From Candidatus Dojkabacteria bacterium (GTDB lineage: Bacteria; Patescibacteriota; Dojkabacteria; SC72; JAFGCJ01), in NCBI GenBank assembly GCA_016932785.1, contig JAFGCJ010000002.1, positions 145,777 to 209,776 on the forward strand: DNA of 64,000 nucleotides, given 5' to 3'. Made by a program: the position numbers and the translations under genes. The notes below the pieces were generated by a model that saw only the letters and a list, made by a program, of their open reading frames with translations, made no database searches and was not told the DNA's origin. Of this stretch, positions 33,208-64,000 are shown in pieces. The stretch's first letter is position 1; each line of letters starts with the position of its first letter.

Positions 33208-35036
33208 TTAAACTGTTCCAGAAAATTAAGATCCCCACAATGTATCCTTCTAATATCTTCAATTTGAGCCCCAAGCATTACCAGCCTATCGAAACCAAGC
33301 CCCCATGCAAAACCAGAGTATTCTTTTGGGTCAAGACCACCTTCTCTCAACACATTTGGATGAACAGGGCCACATGGTACAAGCTCAATCCAACCGGAAT
33401 AACCGCAGAAAGGACAACCTTTTTGACCACATACAAGACACTCCACCATAAATTCAAGACCTGGCTCAACAAAAGGGAAATACGAAGGCTGTATTCTATA
33501 CTTAACGTCCTTTCCATAAAAGGCATTCATGAATTCAGATAAAGTACCAATAAGATCAGTGAGAGTAATTCCTTTGTCCACATATATACCTTCTACCTGA
33601 TAAAAGGTGTGTTCATGACTTGCATCAGTAGCTTCGTTCCTAAAACACTTACCGACAACGACCTCTCTTATGGGAGGAGGAACATTTTTCATTATCCTGT
33701 TCTGCATTGCTGAGGTATGAGTTATTGGAATAAGGCCCTCCTCAGTCCAAAAGGTGTCCCACAAATCTCTTGCAGGATGGCCCTCAGGAATATTAAGTGC
33801 CTCAAATACGTAGTAATCATTGTCCAATTGCCTGGCTTCTGTAACATGAAAGCCCATGGTTTCAAATATTTCAAGGGCCTTCTCTCCAATTTGGGTGATC
33901 GGATGTAGAGTGCCGGAACCCGAGATTAGCTTAGGCATTTTTTTAACAGGAGTGTTTGCTGCAAACGGAGCAGTAATATCTATCTGCTCTTCGGTCAGTA
34001 CCTTACCCTGCCTTTGTCTTGTCTCTCTTTTCTTTAATGTTTCTAGATTTTCCCTAACTCTACCCTCAAGAGCATGCACCTGAATTCCAAAATCGGCACG
34101 GAATTTCTTATCTTTACTTCCAATTGTCCTAAGAAGCGCCTTGACAAGACCTTTCTTCCCAAGATACTTCGTTTTAAGTTTAGAAAAACTCATATCTGTT
34201 TTGATAGAAAAATCCTTTCTCATCTGCATATAAGCATCTTTGATTTCGGGGAATTCTATCTCAACTGTTTTCTTCTTTCCCGAAGCCTTCTGAGTAGATG
34301 GCTGTATCTCAACAGAATAGTTTATCTTCAATGTGTCATCCGTTTTTTCAAGCTCACCGATCACTACCTTTCCCACCTCAGAAGTCTTCATAACCAGCGT
34401 ACCTCCATCAGGAATACCAACATTATCTCCAATTGAAACAACCCTTAATGGTTTATTCTCAGGAAGCTTAGGAGGAACCCACCGCGACTTTTTCGCAATT
34501 TCTTCGCCCGAAACAAATTCTATACTGATGTCAAGATCGGATTTAATGATTTGGGAAATTTTATCAGTTAAAGCACTCTTTAGATCAGACGGAATATCTC
34601 CCAAAACTTTATACTCCACATATGCGTTCTTTCCATGTGAACCTTTAACTGCCTTCAATAAATTTGGTGAAAGATTCATGATGAACAATGCTTCCTCAAC
34701 AAGATGACCCGCTGAATGAACAATCATATTCTTATACCTTCGGTCCCAATCTATCTCACAATTTACCTCAGCACCTTCATGAACGTCTCCAGTGACCTTC
34801 CCATAATGGATAATATCACTTCCTACAAGCTTTACTTCTTTTACATCAACCCTGCCGTCTTCTGAAGTAATAGTGCCTTGATCACAAGGCTGTCCACCTC
34901 CCTCAGGATAAAAAACTGTATCTTCCAATATAAAGCCTTGTCTACCCCCATCAACTGTAATCTCCTTAACCTTAGTGTTCAGGCTTTTTGCGTAAGCATC
35001 TTTAAGATATGTTGGAACTTGATTCATCGCAGGCAT
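33204..35036 (-). CDS. pheS: Phenylalanine--tRNA ligase alpha subunit fused to an N-terminal AlaX/tRNA_SAD-like domain
   Basis: 610 aa. The C-terminal part, about 350 aa, is canonical PheS (KYLGKKG, FRNEATDASHEHTFYQVEG, GFAWGLGFDRL). The N-terminal part, about 250 aa, resembles AlaX-type editing domains (FYPEGGGQPCDQG, HSAGHL). Confidence 0.9.
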   Translation of the reverse strand: MPAMNQVPTYLKDAYAKSLNTKVKEITVDGGRQGFILEDTVFYPEGGGQPCDQGTITSEDGRVDVKEVKLVGSDIIHYGKVTGDVHEGAEVNCEIDWDRRYKNMIVHSAGHLVEEALFIMNLSPNLLKAVKGSHGKNAYVEYKVLGDIPSDLKSALTDKISQIIKSDLDISIEFVSGEEIAKKSRWVPPKLPENKPLRVVSIGDNVGIPDGGTLVMKTSEVGKVVIGELEKTDDTLKINYSVEIQPSTQKASGKKKTVEIEFPEIKDAYMQMRKDFSIKTDMSFSKLKTKYLGKKGLVKALLRTIGSKDKKFRADFGIQVHALEGRVRENLETLKKRETRQRQGKVLTEEQIDITAPFAANTPVKKMPKLISGSGTLHPITQIGEKALEIFETMGFHVTEARQLDNDYYVFEALNIPEGHPARDLWDTFWTEEGLIPITHTSAMQNRIMKNVPPPIREVVVGKCFRNEATDASHEHTFYQVEGIYVDKGITLTDLIGTLSEFMNAFYGKDVKYRIQPSYFPFVEPGLEFMVECLVCGQKGCPFCGYSGWIELVPCGPVHPNVLREGGLDPKEYSGFAWGLGFDRLVMLGAQIEDIRRIHCGDLNFLEQFK

Positions 35037-49807: not shown

Positions 49808-50011
49808 AGGAATATTTTATCAGAAACTATAAGATATTTGTATCTCATATTATGTTATGAATATAGGATTTGTTGACTTCGTGGCCGTGTGTGTTACCGT
49901 AGCCTAACAACAAAATTGACTATTGCTGCTCAAAAATATATAATAACTATAGGATGTTCCAACAGGGTTCTTCGTTCGTTTAATAAGTCATAAGAGGTTT
50001 TTATAGCAACC

Positions 50012-50085
50012 TTTTATGACCTATTAATATAGGTCTGGTATGTATGACCACCTACTCAGGTTGTCATATTACCGTTCTTTAACAA
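50012..50085 (+). promoter_or_regulatory. Upstream element copy A: TTTTATGACCTAT-palindrome ... GTTCTTTAACAA
   Basis: The palindrome gacctat-taat-ataggtc lies at 50018-50035. After 38 nt comes gttctttaacaa at 50074-50085, which ends 167 nt before the ATG at 50253. A related copy lies at 52334-52411. Confidence 0.45.
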
Positions 50086-50252
50086 CTAGGTTTAGGGATT
50101 CCTATCCTTACTGGAACTGAGGACCCCGTTTTGATCAAATTTCAATTTTAGTAGAGTGAATTTGGGCAGAACGGGGTCTTTACCCTTAGGGATGGGAAAA
50201 ATGGAAATGTCTGTTAAGACAAAAATTCTCGTTTAAGAAAAGGAGACAAGCG

Positions 50253-52193
50253 ATGAAAAACGTAAGATTATGCCTTTTGCTAGCGGTAATCGCTAGCCTA
50301 CTCTTGACCGCGATTCCTTCACAGGGAGTCGCATCGGCGGAACAGATGGTACCGCCGTCTTTAGTGAAGGCAAATTTCTCGCAGGATGGTGGCGAATGGG
50401 TCGATGAGTTTAAGTACTGGGACGAGTCCATGAATACAATGACCTATCTTGCTGCCGATGCAAATCAGAGAATGCTGCCTGATGTTGGAGCACTCTCGAC
50501 CGTCTCAATGTCGACGGCTGATCTCCCGCCATATGCATATGCGGGAGTCCAGGTCTGGGCTGGTCCTGGCACCTTCCATGGTGGCCAAGCCGCCAGCAAC
50601 GCCCTCGTCGACGATATCGATGGGGACGGCGACCTGGAAGTAGTATTCACAGGCCTGGCAACAGGTCCCGTGTATGCAGGTCACCACGATGGAACACAAG
50701 TCGCCGGATGGCCAGATAGCAACGGCACCGGAGCTGGGTACTGCAATATGACCCAATTCGACGAAAGCCCCGAAATGGAGGTCTTCTGCGCCTACTGGGG
50801 CGGCGAACAGATTGCACGCCTCGGTGATGGCAGCGTCATGCCCGGATGGCCCCGAACGGGTTCGAACTTCCACTCCACTCCGTTCAGCGCGTGGGATGTA
50901 GATGGCGATTCCACAGACGAGGTATTCGGTGGTGAGGAGGACTGGTCGCTCCACGGCTACAACGGTGATGGAACCGTAGTCGCAGGATGGCCAGTCTGGA
51001 CATACGGAAGTCAGGAACTTCACACGCCAATGATGACAGGTGACGGCAGGATTTACTCCACGAGCGGGTCAACAACAAGCGGAGTGAAGCTAGAGGGTTT
51101 CAACCCCAACGGGACAAGTATCGCAGGATACCCTCGTACCTTCTCAAAAGGGCTTGTTGATACCTTCTTGGCAGGATGGTTCGAAGAAGACGAGCTGAAC
51201 ACTGTCTTCGTCGCCAAGGAGAACAGCTACCCCTGGGACCTAATAGTCCACCGACTGGATGACGAAGCTACAACGCAGTGGACAGCATACGCACCTACAG
51301 TCCCCTACGGGACTGCTCCGGTCGTGGCGGACCTTGATTGCGACAATGATCCGGAAATTATGATCCAGACGGAGGACCGCCTTACCGTACTGAAATCCGA
51401 CGGGTCGATTGCCCCAGAATGGCCGAGGATCTGGAACGACGACATGTACTGGCTAAACAACGCCAGCCCTGTAGTAGGAGATGTAAACGGTGATGGATGG
51501 CCAGATGTGGTCGTCGTTATCAGCTCCTACTCCTACCTCCACTCTGGGTATCTCCGGATCTTTGATAGAAACGGGGAGATACTCTACAACGTCGAACTTC
51601 CTAACTTGGGAGGTGGGGGAGTTCCATACGTCGGAGATCTTGATGGCGACGGAACGACCGAGATCATTGTCATATGCGATTACTGGGACGGGAACTCAGG
51701 CTACAAGGACAAGGTCTACTTCTTCAGGTTCCCGAATAGTGGGCACTCAAGTCCACCGCAATGGTCTCAGTTCGGGCATGATTCCAAGCACACGGGAATC
51801 TGGACTCCTCAGGAGTGCAACTTCGCACCGAACCTTACGATGACCAAATCCGTTAAGATCCCCAGAAATCCGGCCGAGCCTGGCGACGTGTTGACATTCA
51901 CAATCACAATTAGCAACACAGGTACAACAGCAAACGACGTCAGCGTCATCGACAACCTGCCGGAGCCACTCTTAGGAACTGACCTTTCATGGACAGGGAC
52001 TATCACTTCCGGCTCCGAGCTAACCTGGGTGATAACAACAACTGTAGGCGAATTTGAACCTAGGACCTTCGGCCAGATCATCACCAACACAGCGAGCTAC
52101 TCGTATACGCTCGGATCCGGCGAGGTCTCTGCCAACTTTACCGTCGCGAACCCGCGACGCCTCTACCTCCCACTCGCTCTCAAGGGAGAGTAG
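50253..52193 (+). CDS. Secreted FG-GAP/VCBS-repeat beta-propeller protein with C-terminal DUF11-like domain
   Basis: 646 aa with a signal peptide (LCLLLAVIASLLLTAIPSQGVASA). It has five Ca-binding-type repeats (DIDGDGDLEVV, DVDGDSTDEVF, DLDCDNDPEIM, DVNGDGWPDVVV, DLDGDGTTEIIV). The DUF11-like segment is EPGDVLTFTITISNTGTTANDVSVIDNLP. A strong SD, aaaggaga, precedes the gene. Confidence 0.8.
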   Translation: MKNVRLCLLLAVIASLLLTAIPSQGVASAEQMVPPSLVKANFSQDGGEWVDEFKYWDESMNTMTYLAADANQRMLPDVGALSTVSMSTADLPPYAYAGVQVWAGPGTFHGGQAASNALVDDIDGDGDLEVVFTGLATGPVYAGHHDGTQVAGWPDSNGTGAGYCNMTQFDESPEMEVFCAYWGGEQIARLGDGSVMPGWPRTGSNFHSTPFSAWDVDGDSTDEVFGGEEDWSLHGYNGDGTVVAGWPVWTYGSQELHTPMMTGDGRIYSTSGSTTSGVKLEGFNPNGTSIAGYPRTFSKGLVDTFLAGWFEEDELNTVFVAKENSYPWDLIVHRLDDEATTQWTAYAPTVPYGTAPVVADLDCDNDPEIMIQTEDRLTVLKSDGSIAPEWPRIWNDDMYWLNNASPVVGDVNGDGWPDVVVVISSYSYLHSGYLRIFDRNGEILYNVELPNLGGGGVPYVGDLDGDGTTEIIVICDYWDGNSGYKDKVYFFRFPNSGHSSPPQWSQFGHDSKHTGIWTPQECNFAPNLTMTKSVKIPRNPAEPGDVLTFTITISNTGTTANDVSVIDNLPEPLLGTDLSWTGTITSGSELTWVITTTVGEFEPRTFGQIITNTASYSYTLGSGEVSANFTVANPRRLYLPLALKGE

Positions 52194-52240
52194 AAAAACA
52201 AAGTAATCTATTGAGAGCAACCCATCCCTAGACCTAGGCC

Positions 52241-52287
52241 GGGAGAGAACGAATGTGGACCACAAATCCATACAATCGTTCTCTCCC
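52241..52287 (+). other. Perfect 12-bp inverted repeat (stem-loop, possible terminator without U-tail)
   Basis: gggagagaacga (52241-52252) pairs with tcgttctctccc (52276-52287) around a 23-nt loop. The structure starts 48 nt after the FG-GAP gene stop. Confidence 0.4.
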
Positions 52288-52333
52288 GCTAGTGTCAATT
52301 AATAGCTTATAAGAGACCATCTACTAATACTGG

Positions 52334-52411
52334 TTTTTTATAACCTATTAAAAAATAATAGGTTTGTGTCTGATTTTCCTATCGGGGAAATTAGACCAAG
52401 TTCTTTAACAA
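52334..52411 (+). promoter_or_regulatory. Upstream element copy B: TTTTTTATAACCTAT-palindrome ... GTTCTTTAACAA
   Basis: The palindrome aacctatta-aaaaa-taataggtt lies at 52342-52364. After 35 nt comes gttctttaacaa at 52400-52411, which ends 213 nt before the ATG at 52625. Confidence 0.45.
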
Positions 52412-52624
52412 TCCAAAGAGCAAAACCTAGGATTTTGCCTTGATAACAGACGGTCAGGTGAACTAGAGCTATAAAATTGCCGCTATAGTATAGCTTTGAT
52501 TCACCTGTCCTCTGTAAGATCTCGGCAAGGACTTTTTAGAGGTTTTAAATTCAACGGAGATACAGGTAGGCAGCCCCGCATTGGGGGCCAAAAGAATAAT
52601 TGTAGATGGTCAAGGAGGACCGAA

Positions 52625-53527
52625 ATGAAAAGGACACATGTTTTACTAGTATCAGCTATTGTACTGATGATGGCGATTCTGGCCTGCGGGCCAACAGGAT
52701 CACCACCAGCGGCAACCCAATTACAGGAATCAACCTCGGCACCCGTACCGATAGTGAAACCGACCGAGATTCTAACGGCCACTCCAGCAAAGGTCGACTT
52801 TATCATTGAGTGGTCAGAAGAGTTTCGGGCATTGAGTCCTCAAGAGCATGATCTGCTGAAAGATTACTACCCCATGGACACAGAAGTTACAGTTCCAGAA
52901 CTGTTCGAACCTTCGGCACTCGTGGGAATCAGAATCGCAGAGGATGGGCACCCACTGGTCGCCGGTTACAGTCTCCTCGGCACCGAGGAAGGGCTTTGGG
53001 TCGTTTCAGAGAAACATGTACTAGACGGAGGACACCCGGAAATTGCTTTATACGCCCCCCAACTTGGGATAGTAACCTTAGACCCCGACTTCGAGAACCC
53101 AACAGATTCACCAAGAGTCATCGGGTTCAAAGCGGACTTCCAGATACCGGAACATTGGGTGGTAGCGACCTTACCTGTCTCTCGAACAGTAAAGGGCGAC
53201 ACGGTCGCCTTCCCGACCAAGACGGGCAGGTGGTCGGTCGGGTATGTCGTAGGAGAATGCATATCCATCGATGACGAGGGAAACTGCCTCTTCGGCGTCT
53301 CACTTGGCGAAATCGACGTCAGCGGGTGGGCCTGCCAAAGTGACAGCGGCAAGCCAACGCTGAGATTCGACGCGACCACCTATGAAATAACCAATAAAGT
53401 CATGGGCTACTTGGCCGCCGCACCTAGCGAAGAAATCCTAGAGGACATGAAGGACGCTGGCGTCAAATGCCAGCAGTATAATGACCTCTGGTGCTGCAAC
53501 TTCTATGTTGCGGCATATTCAAACTAA
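52625..53527 (+). CDS. Lipoprotein with a chymotrypsin-like Ser motif (possible S1-type peptidase)
   Basis: The start at MKRTHVLLVSAIVLMMAILAC has a lipobox (ILAC) and is preceded by the SD aaggagga. It has GWACQSDSGKPT, which resembles GDSGGP, and an earlier SEKHVLDGGH. The track ORF from 52496 (TTG) has an implausible N-terminus. Confidence 0.6.
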   Translation: MKRTHVLLVSAIVLMMAILACGPTGSPPAATQLQESTSAPVPIVKPTEILTATPAKVDFIIEWSEEFRALSPQEHDLLKDYYPMDTEVTVPELFEPSALVGIRIAEDGHPLVAGYSLLGTEEGLWVVSEKHVLDGGHPEIALYAPQLGIVTLDPDFENPTDSPRVIGFKADFQIPEHWVVATLPVSRTVKGDTVAFPTKTGRWSVGYVVGECISIDDEGNCLFGVSLGEIDVSGWACQSDSGKPTLRFDATTYEITNKVMGYLAAAPSEEILEDMKDAGVKCQQYNDLWCCNFYVAAYSN

Positions 53528-53550
53528 CCTCTCACAGAATAAAGCTCTTT

Positions 53551-53603
53551 GGATTTCATCAGCGAGCCTGAAGGCTCACAAGCACTCGGGCTCGCTGAAA
53601 TCC
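53551..53603 (+). other. Imperfect long hairpin downstream of lipoprotein gene
   Basis: ggatttca-tca-gcgagcc pairs with ggctcgctgaaatcc (8+7 bp, 3-nt bulge, 20-nt loop). It starts 24 nt after the stop at 53527. There is no U-tail. Confidence 0.3.
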
Positions 53604-53764
53604 AATATAACCCCAGAAATAACTACAATTTCACAATTTTCAACACCTATAAAAAAACTAACTGGATTTATTATAAAGAAACCCCAGGTGCATCATTTCT
53701 ATCAAAAGAACACAATGCTGACGCACCTGGAGTAGTATAGTTAGCAAATTCAAAACTCAGTTTT

Positions 53765-54691
53765 CTATGGTATCTTGTCGAGATCCCCCATATGCGGGAA
53801 TTCACGAATTTCTTCGAAATTCACCATGTCCCAGAGAAAGACATTGAAGACTGTCAGCCCTGGTTCAGAGTAATCCATCTGAACTCCTCGGGCACCTTCA
53901 ATATCTTGGAACCAGGAAGCAAACTGATCTCCGTTTCGGATGTTCGGAAAAACCATTACACTACCCGAGACATCGATTATTGCTCGAAACCTTCCCTCGT
54001 TCTCGAATAGTGTTTGTAACGACTGATTTATGGCAAGCATCTCGACCTGCTCGCCATCAGAAACACAAGAAACGGTTGTACTTATGCCCCCTCTCTCAAG
54101 TGCCAGTACACTCTGGGCCACGTACTGGCGATAAAGCCACCACGTAACCAGTTCCTTAATCAGTACACTAGCCTGAGCGTCGGTAGGTTTCCCATCAGGC
54201 GTCCGACTAATATATATCGTCGGCGCCACGTAGGAGTAAATCCTTACGCCCGACAGATACTCGACCGGGATCAGCGGAATGCCGCTAGGAGAGACCTCCC
54301 AGCCTACCCCTCTTTCCAGCTCCTCACTATTGCGAAAGAACCGATACGGGATATAGCCGTACTGAAACTCCGTCACCGTACACGGAGTCGGACTCGTACC
54401 TTTTGGATCGCGGAAAGTTATAAGACCAGAGATTTGCCCCGACTCCATAGTGCCGGTCAGAACAATTTCCGCTCCCAGATTCGGGATCCGGTAATCTGAC
54501 AGTACAATATCCTGATCAAAGGACATGTATGCATCCTCAACAATCTTTCTGAGCTCGGGATTCTCGATCATCTCGAGCCCTCGGGCGTACAGATTTTCTA
54601 TGTACCTCTGATCACCCCCAAAACAACATCCTGGAGCAAAAACAACTGACAAAACAACAATAGTCGTCAACCACAAGCATTTCGTCTTCAT
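53765..54691 (-). CDS. Lipoprotein of unknown function
   Basis: The start at MKTKCLWLTTIVVLSVVFAPGCC has a lipobox-like APGC and is preceded by aaaaaggagac. It encodes 308 aa. I recognised no enzymatic motif. Confidence 0.6.
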   Translation of the reverse strand: MKTKCLWLTTIVVLSVVFAPGCCFGGDQRYIENLYARGLEMIENPELRKIVEDAYMSFDQDIVLSDYRIPNLGAEIVLTGTMESGQISGLITFRDPKGTSPTPCTVTEFQYGYIPYRFFRNSEELERGVGWEVSPSGIPLIPVEYLSGVRIYSYVAPTIYISRTPDGKPTDAQASVLIKELVTWWLYRQYVAQSVLALERGGISTTVSCVSDGEQVEMLAINQSLQTLFENEGRFRAIIDVSGSVMVFPNIRNGDQFASWFQDIEGARGVQMDYSEPGLTVFNVFLWDMVNFEEIREFPHMGDLDKIP

Positions 54692-55040
54692 TTTTCGGTC
54701 TCCTTTTTCCCTTTTACTAGAATTTTGAGTTTTGTAATGAGCCAATCCTATAGTATATCATATTCAACACATGGTAAAACACTTTTTCAGCTACTTTTCA
54801 TCATTATTATCACCCGCCTTTTCACCAAATTCCGCTCCCAACTCACTCTATATAGCCTCGCAAGCCCTGATGCATTGAACAAAACGACAACTGTTTCAAA
54901 TTCAGCATTACCAACTATAGTCAGCCAATCAATTAATACTCGCGAAAGCCCCTCACTTCAGGACAATATCAGTGAGAAAAATTAAAAGGTATTAAATCCC
55001 CATCATCCCATAATTACAAACAGAAAGCTTCTTAATCCCC

Positions 55041-56117
55041 TTAAATACCCTGGGGTTCTTCCTCAAATCTCCTACGAAGATATCTTTCCTCACCGACCGA
55101 AGATGTACTAAGAACACTTTGTTCCTTCCCAGGAAAATCAACAAATCCCGGTATTCTTTCAAAAATAGCTCTAGACTCGGGCCAGGTATACCCAAGCCTA
55201 TCAAGTAGTACTGCCGCTTGATAACGAAGAAGCGCATCGTAAATCCTTCCCTCACCTACCTCTTGTTCAATACGAGGAAGTTCAATAGAAAGATCCCTTA
55301 CTAATTTTTCAGCAATCATATCTCTCAACAAATTCCTAGCTGCGTCATCACGTCCGGAAAGTCTATCCACAGCTGTTGGAATCACAGCCATCCATTTCTG
55401 AAAGTCCCGACTTGCTATATCGATAGCATTTTCTCTCGAACCGTATATAGAATGATAAAGTGGAAACAATGACGAACTTTCTTCTCCTGTTGCAACAAAA
55501 CTTCTGATAGCATCTGTAGCTAAAAGTCTTCGCAGGTAACCTCTATCGGCTTCAGAAAGCTGATCTCCAAGCAAACCCTCTATTGTCCAAAAATACACTT
55601 CATTAGTTTCATGTAATCCTGCGCTTGAGGTTAGTTCAAAATCCAAAAAACCAACAATCAAGCGTGACCCCCTGAGCAGATCACGACGGACATGAGCAAT
55701 ATCAGACCAAACTTCTGGAACACCTACATCCTTATATTTACTCTCTCCAGAACGCATGGCACTACTGAAAGTTCCAAGAAAGGCATAATCCAGCAGATCT
55801 TTATCTGGTTTCTCAATTATTGAACACACAACAGGAATCCAAAATCCTCTCATATCCGCAAGGTCTGTACACAACGCCTTGTAGGCATGTCCTTCTGTAG
55901 CAGGATCTTGAAAAACAGATGCTCTATCAAGAAACAGGAACCTTGCATCTGCAGCCCCTCTTGCCGTCTCAACTAGGTCATGATATGCCGGACCGTAAGC
56001 ATACTCCTTTGCTGGCTTCTCCCCCTGGAATTCTGAGATATAAGCTTCAAAGGAGGACCTTTCTTCCCCTCCTGTACAAAAATCTGGCCTTTCAGCAAAT
56101 GGATTTTCTGATGACAT
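55041..56117 (-). CDS. hypothetical cytoplasmic protein (orphan)
   Basis: 358-aa ORF with no signal peptide or TM segment and intermediate GC. I recognised no motif. Confidence 0.55.
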   Translation of the reverse strand: MSSENPFAERPDFCTGGEERSSFEAYISEFQGEKPAKEYAYGPAYHDLVETARGAADARFLFLDRASVFQDPATEGHAYKALCTDLADMRGFWIPVVCSIIEKPDKDLLDYAFLGTFSSAMRSGESKYKDVGVPEVWSDIAHVRRDLLRGSRLIVGFLDFELTSSAGLHETNEVYFWTIEGLLGDQLSEADRGYLRRLLATDAIRSFVATGEESSSLFPLYHSIYGSRENAIDIASRDFQKWMAVIPTAVDRLSGRDDAARNLLRDMIAEKLVRDLSIELPRIEQEVGEGRIYDALLRYQAAVLLDRLGYTWPESRAIFERIPGFVDFPGKEQSVLSTSSVGEERYLRRRFEEEPQGI

Positions 56118-56243
56118 GTGATATCGGCATCATCTTAGATATATCTGCCCGGAATTCTACACTATAAGATATAACGGGGCAAGAAGATTTTACATGATAT
56201 ACTACCTTCAGACACAATAATCCTAAATTCAAACAACTACCAA

Positions 56244-56585
56244 ATGAAAGTAATCAAGAAAAACGAAGCAAACGATTTTGAAAACAGCAGCACATGCTGG
56301 GGCAAAGAATATCAACATGGAGACAATGATATGGGCATCGCCCTCATTGAAATCAAAGGAAGATATCCGGAAAAAGGCAACTGCATGAATACAAAATGCA
56401 AAGAATTGGTGTACGTAACTAAAGGAAAGGTGAAAATCGTCAAGGGAGATGAATTTCACGAATTGGAGACCGGAGACTCAGTTTTTATATATCCTAATGA
56501 GAAATACTACTGGGAAGGAGATTGTGAAATGGCAATAATTTGTTCACCGGTGTTTGATCACAGGCAGCATAAGATTTTGGAATAA
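56244..56585 (+). CDS. Cupin-domain protein
   Basis: 113 aa. It has the single-domain cupin pattern (KGRYPEKGNCMNTKCKELVYVTKGKVKIV ... GDSVFIYPNEKYYWEG). Confidence 0.7.
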   Translation: MKVIKKNEANDFENSSTCWGKEYQHGDNDMGIALIEIKGRYPEKGNCMNTKCKELVYVTKGKVKIVKGDEFHELETGDSVFIYPNEKYYWEGDCEMAIICSPVFDHRQHKILE

Positions 56586-56689
56586 GGGGGATTTCTAGTA
56601 AAAAGGGAAAACATCACAAGATAGATCACTTCTTTAACTGAAGCCAGAAGGCAATTTTCCTGTTTTAGTAACCTAACACCCTGCCAGAA

Positions 56690-57508
56690 CTATTTACCAG
56701 ACTTCTCCCTCTCTACTGTACCCTTATCAGTATCCAGTATATAAAAGTCGGTAACACGAGAGTAATCATCATCATTATAGATATAGTAGCTGACCTCTAT
56801 TTGATATTCATTTCCTGAGCCTTTTTCTGTAATTCTCGGAGCAGAGGTATCATCGCTTTGATAATTTTCAAGAGTAAATATGTGTTCAAACTGGCCTGAT
56901 TCCATATCCAGCCTCCAGATTCCTCCTACATCATAATAGGCTTCGTGTATTACAGTCATGAATTTCTCACATGCTTCATCTGCAGGAGTAGGACAGCCGG
57001 CAGGAAAGATGTCAAAATAGAAGTATATGTCGTCGTCGGCACTTATTAGTTCGACCTCTCCGATCAGAATTCGCCTTCCGAACAAATCCACAAAATCAAG
57101 GACGTACTCTTTACCGTCTTCAGGCTTCACAATAAATTCACCGCTGGTCCCATCTTCATCAGACGTCCTGTATTCAAATATTGAACCCTCAGAATCACTA
57201 CCCTGGGATTCTTCCTCCGAATCAGACCTATCATCACCGGTTTCTTCATCCGCCTCAGAACTCTTTGAGTCCTCATCACTAGATTGCTCCTTATCTGTGT
57301 CGGTCCTTGACTCATCTCCGCTATTCAGGCTCGAATAAAAATAGACAATTCCTGCACAGGCAAGAGAAATTGTGAAAAATAATGCCAAAAGGATTAAAGG
57401 AACAATGAGTTTCCTATTGAAAGGACACGACCTGGTTTCCTCTTTGGGATCTTTAAGAGGTTTACTAGAAGATTTCTTTTCGGTTTTGCTCGGCATAGGA
57501 TTTTTCAC
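56690..57508 (-). CDS. Membrane-anchored protein with acidic Ser/Asp/Glu-rich linker
   Basis: 272 aa. A Lys-rich N-terminus is followed by one TM segment (LIVPLILLALFFTISLACAGIVYFY). Then come a low-complexity acidic stretch of about 60 aa and a C-terminal domain of about 150 aa. Confidence 0.55.
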   Translation of the reverse strand: MKNPMPSKTEKKSSSKPLKDPKEETRSCPFNRKLIVPLILLALFFTISLACAGIVYFYSSLNSGDESRTDTDKEQSSDEDSKSSEADEETGDDRSDSEEESQGSDSEGSIFEYRTSDEDGTSGEFIVKPEDGKEYVLDFVDLFGRRILIGEVELISADDDIYFYFDIFPAGCPTPADEACEKFMTVIHEAYYDVGGIWRLDMESGQFEHIFTLENYQSDDTSAPRITEKGSGNEYQIEVSYYIYNDDDYSRVTDFYILDTDKGTVEREKSGK

Positions 57509-57587
57509 TATAAAAGCTTAACTGTACTTATTTATACAAGAAAAATGATGGAGTGTATAGGTTCGAAAGTGAGTATGCCTAAAAGGA

Positions 57588-58058
57588 TTAAAAGGAAATA
57601 TATTCTTTCCAGTCCTTATTCCTCTCCATTTCTTCCGATATTAGCTTTCTGAATACATCGACGATTGCGGTGTTGTAGTGGTCTGCATACCATTCGACAA
57701 ATTCGTTTTCCATAGGGTCAAGGCGAACGGGATGAGTTCGTTTGATCATTTTCTTTACTCTGGAAATGAATCTCTTGACTATTTGCTCAAGTATTTCGTG
57801 GTTGTATTCTATGTAGAGAAATTTCGTAGAGGATTTCTGAAAGGCTTCAAGGACTACTGAGCTTTTGCGGTCACGTCCTTCTTTATAGAGAGCAAGGACT
57901 GGTTTACCGAGGGATTGAGCTCGGCCAAGGATAAAGGCGAGTCCGTCAGAGTACATAGAGAGTTCGATTATTATGACATCGTTGTGACGGAGAATTTTGT
58001 CGATTCTCTTTACGGTTTGGTCAGGATACTTTTTGTTGTTGTCAGCACGTAAACCGGC
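57588..58058 (-). pseudogene. 5'-decayed nucleoside 2-deoxyribosyltransferase-like gene
   Basis: The ATG ORF spans 57588-57956. Its frame stays open for 34 more codons, up to an in-frame TGA at 58059-58061, with no ATG/GTG/TTG. The combined sequence ...HNDVIIIELSMYSDGLAFILGRAQSLGKPVLALY fits the central strand-loop-helix of NDT-like folds, so the ATG falls inside a structural element. Confidence 0.4.
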
Positions 58059-58162
58059 TCAAATCCCTATATAGTAAACCTAATCAACATCTCTGGACTA
58101 TATTTATTGACTTATTTATGTTTTATATGTAACATACCAATGATAATATTTTTATCAAAATA

Positions 58163-58708
58163 ATGAATCAGCAGAAGAGAGAAAATCCACAAATAAGGCA
58201 AGAAGATACATCGTGGGGCTTTGTTTGCTCAAATGGATGGGCTTCACTTAATTACTACTTCTCCGACAAATCCTTCAAGAAATTGACCGAAATAGAGAAA
58301 CTTAGGATACTTTCAAAAAGTCTCGAGGCGGTTTCAAAATTGATGCTAGAAAAAGGATACATTAAATTCTTGTCGACATCAGATATTTCTAAGCTTTATG
58401 GAAAGAGTAGACAGTATTGGGAAAGATTATTAAAAGAAGGAAGACTACCGTACCAACAAACATCTGCCGGAAAAATTACTCTCAACCTATGGGTTGAAGG
58501 ATTTCTCGAGGGCAACAAAAATTACACGAGCAAAATGAATTGGGCAAGGAGTCTTATTATCAAAAAACACAAACTAACTAACAAGGACTCAGGTTTCGTT
58601 ATGTGTCCTAATTGCAACAGAAAATCACTGGGGTATAACTATAACAGAGGAACACATATAAACGCTTCCTGCACAAGGTGCAGGTTTAGAATTGACACCC
58701 AAGAATAA
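58163..58708 (+). CDS. DNA-binding protein: excisionase/MerR-like HTH plus C-terminal zinc ribbon
   Basis: 181 aa. The HTH-like segment is LSTSDISKLYGKSRQYWERLLKEGRLPYQQTSAGKI. The C-terminus has CPNC-x21-CTRC. Confidence 0.55.
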   Translation: MNQQKRENPQIRQEDTSWGFVCSNGWASLNYYFSDKSFKKLTEIEKLRILSKSLEAVSKLMLEKGYIKFLSTSDISKLYGKSRQYWERLLKEGRLPYQQTSAGKITLNLWVEGFLEGNKNYTSKMNWARSLIIKKHKLTNKDSGFVMCPNCNRKSLGYNYNRGTHINASCTRCRFRIDTQE

Positions 58709-58731
58709 TTATCTACCTTCTTTTTAGTCAC

Positions 58732-59967
58732 ATGCCAACCCCAAAAGAAGAAAACAAAATAATATCTAGAGATTTAAGGTTTAGCATAATATTAGACACA
58801 TGTTGCCTTGCATTCACAAAAGGTACAACGATCAAGGAAAAGGCGGAAAACGTAAAAAACAAATTTCTAAAGAAAAAAAATCTAGAAATCGAATTTTGCA
58901 TACCTGAGGTTGTAAAAATAGAGCTACAAAAATTTTTCTGGAATCAGGTATTAGAGACCTATAAAAAATATGACGATTCAGCAACAAAACTTAAAAACCT
59001 TCTTGACAAAACCTTCTCAGCTAAATCCAAGCCCAATAAGAAAGAAGTCCTAGAGATAGTGGTAAAGACCCTTAATCTTTTGGATTTTAGAATCCTCATA
59101 AATCGAGACAAAATAGAACCAGATTGTCTCCTCGATGAGGCATGCTGGAAAAAACCACCCTTTAACGTCCCTTCAGAAAAAAATAGTAGAACAATTGGTA
59201 TCGAAGACTATTTCATATTTAAAACTATCGAGTACGAAGCTACAGCGAACAAGGACGATAATAAGGAGCTCATATTTGTCACAGCGGACAACATCTTCAA
59301 AGAAGCAATAGAGACTAACATTAAAGATATAACCGTTGAAACTTCTATCGATGAAGCAGCCTCATTTGTTAATGTTAGACATAAGAATAATTCCAAACTG
59401 TTTGCAAAAACAATTATTAACAATGCAGACAAACAAATTGACAGAATTCTAGAAAACCCCAAGAACGAAATTGCCATTGAGCTCCTCACACAGATACGCA
59501 AATATTTTGACGGCCCTAATATCTCCGGTCTTGGCTTATCTGCAGCCTATTCTTCTTGGCATCCCGTTACAGGAGAATATAATTTTTACAAATCTGATCC
59601 GATAATTAAACAAATTGAAGACGAAAACAAATACATCTGGAAGTCGGTTTTCAGATGCTCCCAAGAGCTTGAAGCAACATCTCGACCTAAAACTGGAGGA
59701 TATGGTTATATTGAAGACCCGCAACCATTCACACCTCGAGTAAAATACCAAGTAGATTTACCAGTTTTTTGGAAGTCAACTATCGACAAAAAAGGAAACT
59801 TATATAATGTTAAACTTTTAAAAACAGGTAAACCAGAAATCATATCAAAATATATATGGCCTCAAGACGAAATGGATAAAAGTTTCCCAGACACGGATTC
59901 TACAGCATCCGGACAACCTCTTGAAGAGATTCCAAAACTAAATCTGTCCACGCACCTTAGGAATTGA
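58732..59967 (+). CDS. PIN-like nuclease domain protein with unknown C-terminal half
   Basis: 411 aa. Four acidic positions follow PIN order: IILDTCCL, IPEVVKIELQ, IGIEDYFIF and LIFVTADNIF. The remaining ~210 aa are unrecognised. The gene starts 23 nt after the HTH gene. Confidence 0.55.
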   Translation: MPTPKEENKIISRDLRFSIILDTCCLAFTKGTTIKEKAENVKNKFLKKKNLEIEFCIPEVVKIELQKFFWNQVLETYKKYDDSATKLKNLLDKTFSAKSKPNKKEVLEIVVKTLNLLDFRILINRDKIEPDCLLDEACWKKPPFNVPSEKNSRTIGIEDYFIFKTIEYEATANKDDNKELIFVTADNIFKEAIETNIKDITVETSIDEAASFVNVRHKNNSKLFAKTIINNADKQIDRILENPKNEIAIELLTQIRKYFDGPNISGLGLSAAYSSWHPVTGEYNFYKSDPIIKQIEDENKYIWKSVFRCSQELEATSRPKTGGYGYIEDPQPFTPRVKYQVDLPVFWKSTIDKKGNLYNVKLLKTGKPEIISKYIWPQDEMDKSFPDTDSTASGQPLEEIPKLNLSTHLRN

Positions 59968-60349
59968 GAATTGTACACAAAGTATCGAAACAGGAATAAA
60001 TAGAAATACAACAAAGATAAAAAAAGATATTTTTACATTCAAAACCCAAAACGATAATAACAAATACTACATTTACAAAAGAAACAGCAACTATGCTATT
60101 TTCTTAGGTGAAATTCTTGGGCTCAATTTCAAGGGAGAAGTTACTCAACATTCTGATAATGACAAGTACATAATTCCAAGTGGCCCTATATCACCGAAGG
60201 AGGGCCGTCGATTAAATATCAGCTCTTCTACGCAGCTGTTTGGCAGCGTAATACCTCCTATACATGCAACAAAGAGCATCGTTCACCCAACAGTTCCTTA
60301 TCCAAAGTACGTTCCAAACAGCTATACTCCAAAACTAGCTTTTTTCCTC

Positions 60350-61162
60350 ATGCGTAACAAATTGATTCCCCCAGGATTCACTATTTTTTCTAAAGAGGAC
60401 TACTGGCAAGCAATTAATGTTTTCTTAAAAAGAGATCTCGTACCCCGCATGAAGTTTCCTTTCAAATCTGGACTTTCAGAACAAAGGCTTATTTACTGCA
60501 AACAAGAAGCTTTCAACCTTTCAAAGTGTATCAATTGGGATAGAATATCCAGAGTTGGATTAGTCTTGGAAGCTAATGTAATAAACACTGTTAAAAGCTC
60601 GAATCCTAAGTCATACACAACAGCAACTATAGAGCTAGACAGATATAAATACAGCTATATAGGAGAACAAATCATAAAAGAAGAGAAAATACCAGGAGTA
60701 GAATATCTTACAAAATTCAGAATAGTAAAAGGACAGGTGAAAAAATTATACTCTCTTGTATCCAATGACCTTAAACCACTTGTAGACAAAACTATGCTAG
60801 TACATCATGCCTTCCGTCTTCTACCACACTTTATATGTTCAAGATTTAATTTTAACTTTATCTATGGTCAGATCGAAACTTGGTCTAAAAAAGGATCTAG
60901 TAGACACTCAACAGATATTTATTTTACAGAGCAAACATTTCGACCAGGCAGAGCAACAGGAGGAGTCCTACTTTCAGTTAAGGAATTTCTTCTTAATCCT
61001 GGCATAAGGTATATTTCAGCTGAATCATCCACGCATTTCGGCAAAAAATACCCCAAGCAATATCGTTACAATTCGAAAATATTCTTCGATGGTATCGATC
61101 CCTATTATGGTCCAACACAATGCTGGGCTATTTTAAACTCTATAAAATATCTATCACAATAA
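60350..61162 (+). CDS. hypothetical protein; frame is open from 59942, so the true product may be up to 406 aa
   Basis: From the first ATG the product is 270 aa. The same frame has no stop for 136 codons upstream, back to the TAA at 59939-59941, and no ATG/GTG/TTG in that stretch. The extension translates to protein-like sequence (DIFTFKTQNDNNKYYIYKRNSNYAIFLGEILGLNFKGEV...). Confidence 0.55.
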   Translation: MRNKLIPPGFTIFSKEDYWQAINVFLKRDLVPRMKFPFKSGLSEQRLIYCKQEAFNLSKCINWDRISRVGLVLEANVINTVKSSNPKSYTTATIELDRYKYSYIGEQIIKEEKIPGVEYLTKFRIVKGQVKKLYSLVSNDLKPLVDKTMLVHHAFRLLPHFICSRFNFNFIYGQIETWSKKGSSRHSTDIYFTEQTFRPGRATGGVLLSVKEFLLNPGIRYISAESSTHFGKKYPKQYRYNSKIFFDGIDPYYGPTQCWAILNSIKYLSQ

Positions 61163-61387
61163 AACTAGTTAGTAATACCTCTTGAAAAACCAAGAGCGTT
61201 CACCCCATTTCCCACCTAGCCAACTCATCACCCCCTTCCCCTTACCCAGAATTTCATAACCCACTATTAAATTCCATTATTATTTTGGCCCAAAGAAGAT
61301 ATAAGGGGATATTCACAACAAACAGTATTTCAAGAATTAGCAAGTTCATAATCACAGTACAAATACTACCCTACGGAATAAAAAATT

Positions 61388-62122
61388 CTACTCCCCGCAA
61401 AAGCCGATCATCCTATTCAATATTTGCACTTGTGCCACAGTAAACCTGCCACAGGCAATACCCTCTTTCACACTTCGTATGATATCACCGCGAAGAGCAC
61501 TCGAGTCGCTTGCTATCCATCTCATACATACGGCTGTAACCCTCTGCATTATCGGGGCTACCGCGTCACCTAAATGATCTATTTCAAGCTTACCAGCAGC
61601 CAACATCCCTAGAACCACTCTCGCTTTCCTCGCATGAGGAAGACCATATCCATCCGGATATGGCTCGGCATTACCCAAAATCGTATCGGTTACAACATAA
61701 GCAATGTCTGGACTGACGAATTTCCCGGTCGCAAGTGCCCTTGCCGCTGATATTATCCAAGTAGCCTTATCCTCTGAATCAAACCTGTTCTCTGGATCAT
61801 CTATAACACAAAAAGCCACATAACCCGCGCTCGACAGAAGTTCTTGACCGTATCTTAATGCTTCAGGTTTAAGCGCCCCTGAGAGAGCAAACTTGAAAAT
61901 TTCCCCAGAAAGTTTTGTTGAGCGCTCATCAACAGGACTCATCGCTACTTTTGCAAGTGCGTTTATTGCTGCTGCCGGATGAACCTCTTTAAGGTCGCCA
62001 GCTTCAATTCCCTCCCTAACAGTCGCAATATAATACGGTGACATCGAATCACAGGCCGTAATACCAGTCACTGCATCCGCAGTAGAAAGGGTACTTAAAT
62101 CAATTTTGGGATTCTCTGACAT
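61388..62122 (-). CDS. hypothetical protein, paralog A of a tandem pair
   Basis: 244 aa. It aligns by eye with the upstream 241-aa ORF (GITAC..SPYYIATVREGIEAGD vs GIKAC..PRYVSSVRDGIETGD). It has no TM segment or signal peptide. Confidence 0.6.
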   Translation of the reverse strand: MSENPKIDLSTLSTADAVTGITACDSMSPYYIATVREGIEAGDLKEVHPAAAINALAKVAMSPVDERSTKLSGEIFKFALSGALKPEALRYGQELLSSAGYVAFCVIDDPENRFDSEDKATWIISAARALATGKFVSPDIAYVVTDTILGNAEPYPDGYGLPHARKARVVLGMLAAGKLEIDHLGDAVAPIMQRVTAVCMRWIASDSSALRGDIIRSVKEGIACGRFTVAQVQILNRMIGFCGE

Positions 62123-62140
62123 AGCAACTTAATACTAATC

Positions 62141-62866
62141 TTAAGCTCCGGGAGACCTATAAACATCAATCAGCTCCCTTATTCTCTCTTCCTGTCTCTG
62201 ATTAAACACTTTTTCTCCAAGTCCCATCTCTAAATCATTAATATGATTCCCTCGATTGTAACTATCCGCCTTAATCCATGCAGCATATGTATCTATGACA
62301 CCAGTCATAATGATATCACGCATATTGTCAGAACAACTAAGTTTATGTTTACCACAGCAAAGTTCCGCTACTAAATAACTTGCAATAATTGAAAATGGCA
62401 TCCCACCTCTTGAACGTGAAGCTGTCAACAAAGCGTCGGCAAGAACATATAAAGTTTCCTCACTTGTATATCTCTGCTCCTTTATTGCATCAACAGAAAC
62501 TGAAGCAGCACGAGCCCTGACGTCCGGATCACCTAAGGTATCTATAACAAGGGAAGAAGCAAGATATACCGAACGATCGAGCAGATGCTCACTGAAGGTT
62601 TCCGCCTCTTCAGGCATATCACCGCCAAGAAAATCCAAAAAAAGATTCCTTGCTGTTACCGTAGTCGGATTATAAACATCAAGATTAGCAACGCTAAAAA
62701 GAGCTTTCGCAATAGGCTCGGGTTCTATGTCCTGCATATCTCCAGTCTCAATGCCATCTCTTACAGAAGAAACATACCTCGGTCCATCATTACCGCAGGC
62801 TTTAATACCGTTTTCAACCTCCTGAGTTGTAAATTGATCAAGAGAAAAAGGTTTTTCGTCATACAT
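62141..62866 (-). CDS. hypothetical protein, paralog B of a tandem pair
   Basis: 241 aa, 18 nt upstream of paralog A on the same strand, with shared N-terminal and central motifs. Confidence 0.6.
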   Translation of the reverse strand: MYDEKPFSLDQFTTQEVENGIKACGNDGPRYVSSVRDGIETGDMQDIEPEPIAKALFSVANLDVYNPTTVTARNLFLDFLGGDMPEEAETFSEHLLDRSVYLASSLVIDTLGDPDVRARAASVSVDAIKEQRYTSEETLYVLADALLTASRSRGGMPFSIIASYLVAELCCGKHKLSCSDNMRDIIMTGVIDTYAAWIKADSYNRGNHINDLEMGLGEKVFNQRQEERIRELIDVYRSPGA

Positions 62867-62965
62867 AATACAAAAAGGTTAAATAATTTATACTATAAGT
62901 GCTATTGTAACGCAAAAGATATTACTAAACAACCCATAGTCATCATCATGTTAACTTCGAAACAA

Positions 62966-62974
62966 TGCTATAAT
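62966..62974 (+). promoter_or_regulatory. Extended -10 promoter element TGcTATAAT
   Basis: A perfect TATAAT at 62969-62974 is preceded by TG at 62966-62967. It lies 45 nt upstream of the NUDIX gene ATG at 63019. Confidence 0.4.
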
Positions 62975-63018
62975 TTTCCCAATCTGGAGATTAAATAAAA
63001 TATCCAACCCCAAATTTC

Positions 63019-63459
63019 ATGTCCAAAAGAACTGACCTGCCCCAGATAGCTTCCTACATACTTCTCGAAAAAGATAACAAAATTCTCCTTATCAGACGCT
63101 ACAATACCGGCTGGCACGACGGCGACTTCACCCTACCCGCCGGCCACGTAAAGTCGGGCGAATCTGCTTTACAAACCTCTATCCGGGAAGCTAAAGAAGA
63201 AATTGGAGTCACAATAATACCAGAAGACACGGAGCTGGCTCATATAATTCACCGCAATAAAGAACCCGACAATCCCGAATATATTGATTTCTATTTTAAA
63301 GTAAAAAACTGGGATGGCGAGATTAAACTCGGAGAATCCTGCGATAAATGCGACTGGTTTGAACTGCAGAAGCTGCCTGAAAACATTATCCCGGTTGTAA
63401 AAACGGTTTTACTGAGAATAAAAGAAGGTATTAAGTACTCGGAGGACGGGTGGAGATAG
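63019..63459 (+). CDS. NUDIX hydrolase
   Basis: 146 aa with a canonical Nudix box, GHVKSGESALQTSIREAKEEIGV (Gx5Ex7REx2EExG). Confidence 0.85.
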   Translation: MSKRTDLPQIASYILLEKDNKILLIRRYNTGWHDGDFTLPAGHVKSGESALQTSIREAKEEIGVTIIPEDTELAHIIHRNKEPDNPEYIDFYFKVKNWDGEIKLGESCDKCDWFELQKLPENIIPVVKTVLLRIKEGIKYSEDGWR

Positions 63460-63571
63460 CCAGAAGTGACGTTAGTTCGAATCGGTTAGCAGGTAAGCGG
63501 ACCGGCCAAAGTGTAGTAGAAGAGTTTTCAGAATGAGGGTTGGCGGCCCTTATTAGGTTTTTCTCTGTGAC

Positions 63572-63934
63572 TCAGTGTGGTGGAGCCCGAAATTCGGGCT
63601 TCCTGTAGACCTTCACGGGATACGGGCTCTCAACCCATCCCTCTTCCAGGTGCATATACAGCACAGGAATTTCTTCACCATCATCGAGATATTTTACAAC
63701 TATCGGGTCTCCCCAATACGTTGTGCAGTACTCATCTCCTTGAGGCCCTTCCTCGGCCAACAGAATCGTAATTTCCTGGCCTTCCCCGATATTGACGACA
63801 ATTTCATCGCCGATATCGGGATAAAACCCCGCGTCCGACTCGAAGCGGCCCACCAGTCTCTTTGACGAAAACTGGCCCGTAAAAGCCATGTAGGGGACCA
63901 TAACTAGCGCAACGAAAGCCAAAACAGCCAACAC
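63572..63934 (-). CDS. hypothetical membrane-anchored protein (5' end uncertain)
   Basis: 120 aa from a GTG start, with an N-terminal hydrophobic helix LAVLAFVALVMVPYMAF. The frame stays open upstream to the window edge, so the true start may lie outside the window. Confidence 0.45.
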   Translation of the reverse strand: MLAVLAFVALVMVPYMAFTGQFSSKRLVGRFESDAGFYPDIGDEIVVNIGEGQEITILLAEEGPQGDEYCTTYWGDPIVVKYLDDGEEIPVLYMHLEEGWVESPYPVKVYRKPEFRAPPH

Positions 63935-64000
63935 TGCCCAGAAAATTCTTGTCCTAGACCTTCCGGAGGGATTCCTCGAAAAAATATTGAACCCTCCCCA

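Follow-up and report, generated by a model that had tools for sequence, protein, structure and literature searches.

A DUF3182-family ATP-grasp gene with ATA at the expected start codon in a Candidatus Dojkabacteria genome

The stretch of DNA analysed here (the window) comprises 64,000 nucleotides from a Candidatus Dojkabacteria bacterium (assembly GCA_016932785.1, contig JAFGCJ010000002.1, positions 145,777 to 209,776 of the forward strand). It encodes UvrB, MutL, PheS/PheT, a class A penicillin-binding protein, and NrdD, and is therefore part of a bacterial chromosome; among species representatives, its UvrB is closest to that of a Candidatus Saccharibacteria genome, at 68% identity. Near the end of the window lies a long open frame that lacks a canonical start codon over its first 136 codons, and that we assign here to the DUF3182 family. 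It is bounded on the 5′ side by TAA at 59939-59941, closed by TAA at 61160-61162, and preceded on the same strand by an open reading frame (ORF) whose stop codon, TGA at 59965-59967, falls inside the open frame. The sequence and its translation bear out what the original prediction had described: after the TAA at 59939-59941 there are 136 codons (59942-60349) that contain neither a stop nor any ATG, GTG, or TTG before the ATG at 60350. The whole frame amounts to 406 codons. The features of the locus are collected in Table 1.

TABLE 1 Features of the start-less open frame, its upstream neighbour, and the partner genes; positions are those of the window except where a homologue locus is named
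Feature	Position	Strand	Remarks
DUF3182-family ATP-grasp gene, 381 codons plus TAA	60017-61162	+	Start placed by homologues; ATA at start position
ATA at Met1 position of homologues, putative former ATG	60017-60019	+	Alignment and tblastn
N-terminal coding part, 111 codons	60017-60349	+	Invariant G at 60242-60244, invariant K at 60272-60274, near-invariant H at 60284-60286
First canonical start, ATG	60350-60352	+	Met112 within the 381-aa protein; would give 270 aa
25 stop-free codons before the ATA	59942-60016	+	Spacer plus last 26 nt of the upstream ORF in another frame
GenBank start, ATC read as Met	59942-59944	+	MBN2100591.1
CTT AGG A heptamer in the frame of the upstream ORF	59956-59962	+	In the 26-nt overlap; Ty1-like +1 site, rejected
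ATTGA	59963-59967	+	In-frame ATT over the upstream TGA; coupling site of the original prediction
Upstream orphan ORF, 411 codons	58732-59967	+	GenBank MBN2100590.1, hypothetical protein JW710_01700
Partner remnant in the window, 5′-truncated	57591-58058	-	No start until internal ATG 57956
Partner genes at homologue loci	L048 5172-5756; L050 5113-5691 and 7391-7966; L051 5136-5720; L053 4124-4717; L054 4129-4707	-	

By local base composition, the probability of 136 codons without a stop is ~1e-4, and that of 136 codons with neither a stop nor a start is ~6e-7. The window has 44 open frames of 200 codons or more; the longest start-free leader after this one has 39 codons, and none of the other long ORFs lacks a canonical start. 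Length is not decisive by itself, however, because a 138-codon stretch free of stops and starts is also found at 54020-54496 (+), antisense within ORF 53765-54745. Start-less open frames this long also arise as shadows of opposite-strand genes; it is homology, as judged from the sequence comparisons below, and not length that decisively settles the coding nature of the 136-codon stretch.

Compared with Pfam, the translated 406-codon frame matched DUF3182 (PF11379) in one piece, with residues 49 to 391 on profile positions 19 to 349 of 354 (107.6 bits, E = 8e-31). The 136 residues of the start-free stretch, taken alone, matched positions 18 to 107 of the same profile (31.1 bits, E = 1.5e-7; the Pfam gathering score is 26 bits), in keeping with the earlier impression that the stretch looks like real protein. 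A HMMER search of 1.84 billion representative proteins gave 233 homologues, all stand-alone proteins and mostly 350-420 aa long; the near-full-length ones listed have 350 to 472 aa and ~25-31% identity. In an alignment of 92 sequences that includes the window protein, G76, K86, G120, K146, G181, and E185 are invariant (numbered on the 381-residue protein read from 60017), and the window protein keeps all six. Two of these, G76 and K86, lie in the start-free stretch together with the near-invariant H90 (G101, K111, and H115 in the numbering of the 406-residue frame). Codon usage agrees: the log-odds over the 111 codons from 60017 is +0.23 per codon, like the remainder of the gene. The score, the invariant residues, and the length and architecture of the 381-aa protein all fit membership in DUF3182, but the codon at the start position does not.

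An AlphaFold2 model of the protein encoded by 60017-61159, built on the 92-sequence alignment, had a mean predicted local distance difference test (pLDDT) score of 93.9 and a predicted template modelling score (pTM) of 0.93, with pLDDT of 85-98 over residues 1-111. A Foldseek search of the PDB identified ATP-grasp enzymes with a probability of 1.00 and a template modelling (TM) score of ~0.5 normalised to the query, among them the biotin carboxylase domain of pyruvate carboxylase, E. coli biotin carboxylase, the Streptomyces ATP-grasp peptide ligase 8ynd, and RimK. The window protein is thus predicted to adopt the three-domain ATP-grasp fold, in agreement with the published remark that DUF3182 is a family of this fold (Burroughs, Zhang and Aravind 2015, PMC4431377). 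The original prediction had asked whether the extension completes a domain, and in the model the N-terminal 111 residues do complete it. The near-full profile match, the retention of all invariant residues, and the predicted fold make up the likeness to the family; homology and structure prediction together establish that the extension is coding, that it belongs to DUF3182, and that it contributes to an ATP-grasp fold. The window gene differs from its relatives in reading ATA where they have ATG for Met1, in standing at ~30% identity to the nearest of them, and in having a partner gene that is truncated and displaced.

The homologues also locate the start. Many of the HMMER hits pair their residues 2-3 with residues 27-28 of the 406-residue query, and in the alignment the window sequence from I26, IKKDIFTF, stands opposite the N termini MSKDVITY (P0004), MKKEVVTY (P0023), MIKKVYTY (P0013), MSRKIYTY (P0012), and MNRKIYTI (P0009). 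By tblastn, residue 1 of P0004, P0009, P0010, and P0012 falls exactly on 60017, in a single high-scoring segment pair that runs to ~61130. The modal N-terminal length up to a conserved aromatic residue is 8 residues (n = 91 homologues), the same as in the window protein read from 60017. The DNA of the homologue loci begins with ATG at this point (ATG TCA AAA GAT GTC ATT ACT TAC at L051, ATG AAT AGA AAA ATT TAT ACT ATC at L050, and ATG AAG AAA ATA TAC AAC TAT at L048); the window reads ATA. Coding-like codon usage begins at 60017 and not earlier. A second gene at L050 bears on the same N-terminal pattern: the called start of P0003 (ATG 4001, MPLG...) is probably 8 codons short (region 3977-4003), and an in-frame upstream ATG gives MNGNIYTYMPLG (MNGNIYTY), which fits the family.

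A near-cognate codon, ATA, thus occupies the position of the homologues' initiator, and on these alignments the ancestral start lay at 60017. Orthologues that began at the equivalent of 60350 would have spoken against the original prediction, but the homologues start ~111 residues earlier; its account of a gene without a canonical start holds in that the Met1 position itself reads ATA. In comparisons of UvrB, ATA stood opposite Ile in 75 of 119 cases, and Met was outside its six commonest partners. By this comparison there is no genetic code change, and ATA is an ordinary Ile codon in this genome.

The original prediction had taken the extension as a unit of 136 codons. Of these, 111 are genuine N-terminal sequence and make up the N-terminal domain and linker, but the first 25 (59942-60016) are probably open by chance and lie outside the protein: most homologues lack an equivalent, Pfam gives no match, their codon log-odds is -0.06 per codon, and the probability that 25 codons stay open is ~0.18 at a stop frequency of 0.066. 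The same comparison bears on the proposed coupling at ATTGA. The ATT at 59963-59965 does share its T with the upstream TGA, as the original prediction had noted, and the motif imitates the geometry of ATGA-type stop/start coupling; a start at this ATT would add 18 residues that are absent from the homologues, however, and the homologue N termini argue against its use. The Met1 position lies 49 nt downstream of that TGA.

Two further candidates were rejected. Slippage in the run of seven A residues at 60019-60025 would not rescue a start, since none of the frames contains an ATG or GTG from 59942 to 60019, and the only TTGs there (59964 and 59971) are out of frame and reach TAA and TAG before the run. 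Read-through of the TGA at 59965 under code 4 or 25 would not produce a fusion, since the upstream frame meets TAG at 60001, twelve codons later. A scan of 57400-61500 for promoters and terminators gave counts no higher than in shuffled sequence, with nothing at 59968-60016.

The upstream ORF had been labelled a PIN gene. We could not confirm the label: no PIN profile matched in Pfam, NCBIfam, PADLOC, PHROGs, or PDB sequences, and none appeared in Pfam up to E 10 with half-length queries. A resemblance to PIN proteins is seen only by eye, in motifs such as IILDTC and FVTADN. The ORF had no match of any kind in the same five collections and matched itself alone among 5.8 billion proteins; a single-sequence AlphaFold2 model (pLDDT 36) was too poor for a structure search.

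The arrangement of the two frames raises the question of a fusion, either by programmed +1 frameshifting that joins the upstream 411-aa protein to the DUF3182 enzyme, or by a frameshift mutation in a once-fused gene. The frames share 26 nt with an offset of +1, and within the overlap is CTT AGG A, which is similar to the Ty1 heptamer CUU AGG C and to the CUU slip codon of prfB. We nevertheless regard a fusion as hardly credible. Not one of the 233 homologues is fused in this way at its N terminus (the longest listed has 472 aa), and their Met1 aligns 25 codons past the point where the open frame begins. The upstream neighbours at five homologue loci are unlike one another and unlike the window ORF (MmeI, YibE_F, an integrase, a Mg-chelatase-like protein, and topoisomerase I), and that ORF is itself without homologues. 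Nor does AGG offer a likely pause, being no rare codon here: with 0.97% of all codons it ranks second among the Arg codons, above any CGN codon. Inspection of the sequence upstream of CTT AGG A found no Shine-Dalgarno-like stimulator, and the 25 linking codons are not coding-like. CTT AGG A thus imitates the prfB/Ty1 type of site, but stand-alone homologues and codon usage argue against its use. Of the explanations offered by the original prediction, a non-canonical ATT, ATA, or ATC start and a lost start survive; a frameshift fusion with the PIN protein is unsupported.

The full open frame is already annotated. GenBank MBN2100591.1, a "DUF3182 family protein" of 406 aa (cluster member P0153), begins MCPRTLGIEN and corresponds to the whole open frame from ATC 59942; a gene call in the Logan collection (P0001) starts at ATG 60350 and has 270 aa. 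With the 381-aa protein from ATA 60017 there are three gene models, and by the family alignment only the last agrees with the homologues. Our refinement is the placement of the homology-supported start at 60017, and not at 59942 or 60350. Could the functional product nevertheless be the 270-aa protein, with the upstream 111 codons a relic? Its ATG is the first canonical start and is the one used by the Logan call. The product would span only profile positions 112 to 349 of 354, however, and would lack positions 1-111 with G76, K86, and H90; in terms of the model, it would be without the invariant linker lysine and the N-terminal ATP-grasp domain. Over the 111 codons upstream, the frame remains open and the family likeness persists, and the sequence before ATG 60350, ...cttttttcctc, has no ribosome-binding motif. 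We consider this product very unlikely.

The ATA might also be an error of the consensus, or a minority variant fixed by the assembler, with a true ATG at 60017 and an ordinary gene behind it. A single base (60019) separates the two codons, at the edge of the seven-A run, and the genome is metagenome assembled. Against this, Logan contig SRR13394437_777369 (L001, run SRR13394437) is identical to the GenBank contig over window positions 55350-64000, though the two may share reads. Consensus substitution errors are rare at normal coverage, and we rate this explanation as unlikely, only a little ahead of the 270-aa product.

Evidence of a different kind comes from a second gene. In six of six homologue copies with downstream sequence (five loci), the DUF3182 gene stands tail-to-tail with a gene for a protein of 191-197 aa, overlapping it or within about a dozen bases. 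The N-terminal part of this partner gives sub-threshold matches to nucleoside 2-deoxyribosyltransferases. From the conservation of the pair, DUF3182 and the ~192-aa partner look like an uncharacterised conserved two-gene module, and the pairing may help more in assigning a function to DUF3182 than the start codon does. The window has one copy of the partner, which the alignments show to be truncated: the remnant aligns to partner residues 43-192, tblastn places it on 58043-57600 with in-frame stops just upstream, and the first ~42 residues are lost. The remnant matches the Pfam Nuc_deoxyrib_tr profile over positions 58-103 of 117 only, and its C-terminal part matches DUF6290/RelB-like (ribbon-helix-helix) families. 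It lies head-to-head with the DUF3182 gene, with a helix-turn-helix (HTH)/zinc-ribbon ORF and the orphan 411-codon ORF between them. It is in a stretch of lower G+C content, 35% versus ~40%. To look for traces of an insertion, the flanks of the HTH and orphan gene pair were compared for repeats; the matches were short and at chance level only. Directly downstream of the DUF3182 gene, at the usual partner site, are two adjacent ORFs of 244 and 241 aa (61388-62122 and 62141-62866, both -), possibly paralogues, neither of which matches a Pfam or NCBIfam family.

Both genes of the module are damaged at the 5′ end but are otherwise open, which suggests, as far as the sequences go, a recent inactivation of the module. 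We therefore lean, somewhat beyond an even balance, toward a young pseudogene in a decaying two-gene module whose start ATG has mutated to ATA. On this reading, a full-length DUF3182 ATP-grasp gene occupies 60017-61162, and its ancestral ATG would have become ATA, most simply by a G-to-A change at 60019. With the AUG lost, translation would be absent, or would start at AUA or an AUH codon nearby (H being A, C, or U) with no more than a few percent efficiency; in E. coli, AUA initiates at ~1-2% of AUG (bioRxiv 10.1101/063800). The two genes would then be decaying together, the DUF3182 gene as a young pseudogene. We infer both the direction of the mutation, from ATG to ATA, and the present state of expression. 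Pseudogenes formed by loss of the start codon occur in reduced or AT-biased bacterial genomes. The window gene is like them in that one GC-to-AT transition would remove the ATG of an otherwise intact gene, with a module neighbour also damaged; it differs in having no further disabling mutation, so that its status as a pseudogene is a matter of context.

Several observations weigh against decay. Neither a stop nor a frameshift interrupts the 381-codon frame, and the six invariant residues are kept. By conserved-column score the window protein is last or nearly last in the whole family set, yet within the range of its own subfamily. A word-indexed search of 5.8 billion proteins returned the locus itself only, and protein scans of JGI metagenome contigs and of contigs of GTDB representative genomes found no relative; because these collections hold no close orthologue, the ancestral ATG is deduced from relatives at ~30% identity. 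The head-to-head partner, with two genes between, is unlike the tail-to-tail pairs elsewhere. Apart from the start codon and the damaged partner there is no sign that the gene is dead, and a working gene with weak initiation would fit just as well.

Such a gene would make a low level of enzyme from ATA 60017 or from one of its neighbours, ATT 60029, ATA 59996, ATC 59984, ATT 59963, or ATC 59942, and initiation may be helped by ribosomes that terminate at the TGA 49 nt before the ATA. Near-cognate AUH codons initiate at 0.02-3% of AUG in E. coli, where infC and pcnB start natively at AUU (bioRxiv 10.1101/063800). The frame that is intact over 381 codons, with its invariant residues and confident fold prediction, is as expected of a working gene. 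The two ORFs before it are on its strand, and the gaps are short (23 and 49 nt), so that it could be co-transcribed with them; GenBank annotates the protein with an ATC start; and Shine-Dalgarno motifs are rare in the genome, so the needs for initiation context may be unusual. In the other direction, the collections searched hold no orthologue with a conserved non-ATG start, every other long ORF in the window has a canonical start, the obligate-looking partner is truncated, and the protein stands at the divergent end of its subfamily. We judge a functional gene of this kind possible but clearly less probable than the pseudogene. The likeness to infC and pcnB is that an AUH codon stands exactly at the expected initiator, where low-level initiation would be possible. 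The AUU of infC is conserved and has an autoregulatory role, whereas the context of the window ATA suggests decay. A more specific proposal seems to us improbable: selection would have kept ATA 60017, or an AUH codon close by, as a functional weak initiator, possibly fed by the ribosomes that terminate 49 nt upstream, to hold a possibly harmful ATP-grasp enzyme at a trace level after loss of the partner.

If the gene is expressed, the ATA would be a rare documented natural AUA start in a bacterium; no result here requires AUA initiation. A known and ordinary event, either a start-codon mutation or a weak non-standard start, accounts for the finding, and there is no support for a new mechanism of translation. 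The main value of the result is the annotation of this locus, where the gene may be a pseudogene. More generally, a long start-less open frame can be resolved by comparing the N termini of distant homologues.

Several observations elsewhere in the window were made along the way. Shine-Dalgarno-like motifs precede very few of its genes, and in many genes a TATAAT-like hexamer ends ~5-12 nt before the ATG (for example, at 27717, 33204-35036 [-], 45302, and 23817-25598 [-]); this spacing suggests leaderless or very short-leader mRNAs in the genome of this uncultured candidate phyla radiation (CPR) bacterium. The PheS homologue (610 aa, 33204-35036, -) has an unusual extension, in which residues 23-99 match the C-terminal end of the alanyl-tRNA synthetase core model (tRNA-synt_2c, E = 1.3e-14). 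Two NrdD paralogues are adjacent at 12128-13927 and 13939-16062 (+); both match the full profile, and the ATP-cone is present in the second only. Finally, the G+C content at 50001-54000 is 48-52%, versus ~40% elsewhere; this region holds a 646-aa FG-GAP/DUF11 repeat protein (50253-52193) and may have been acquired horizontally.

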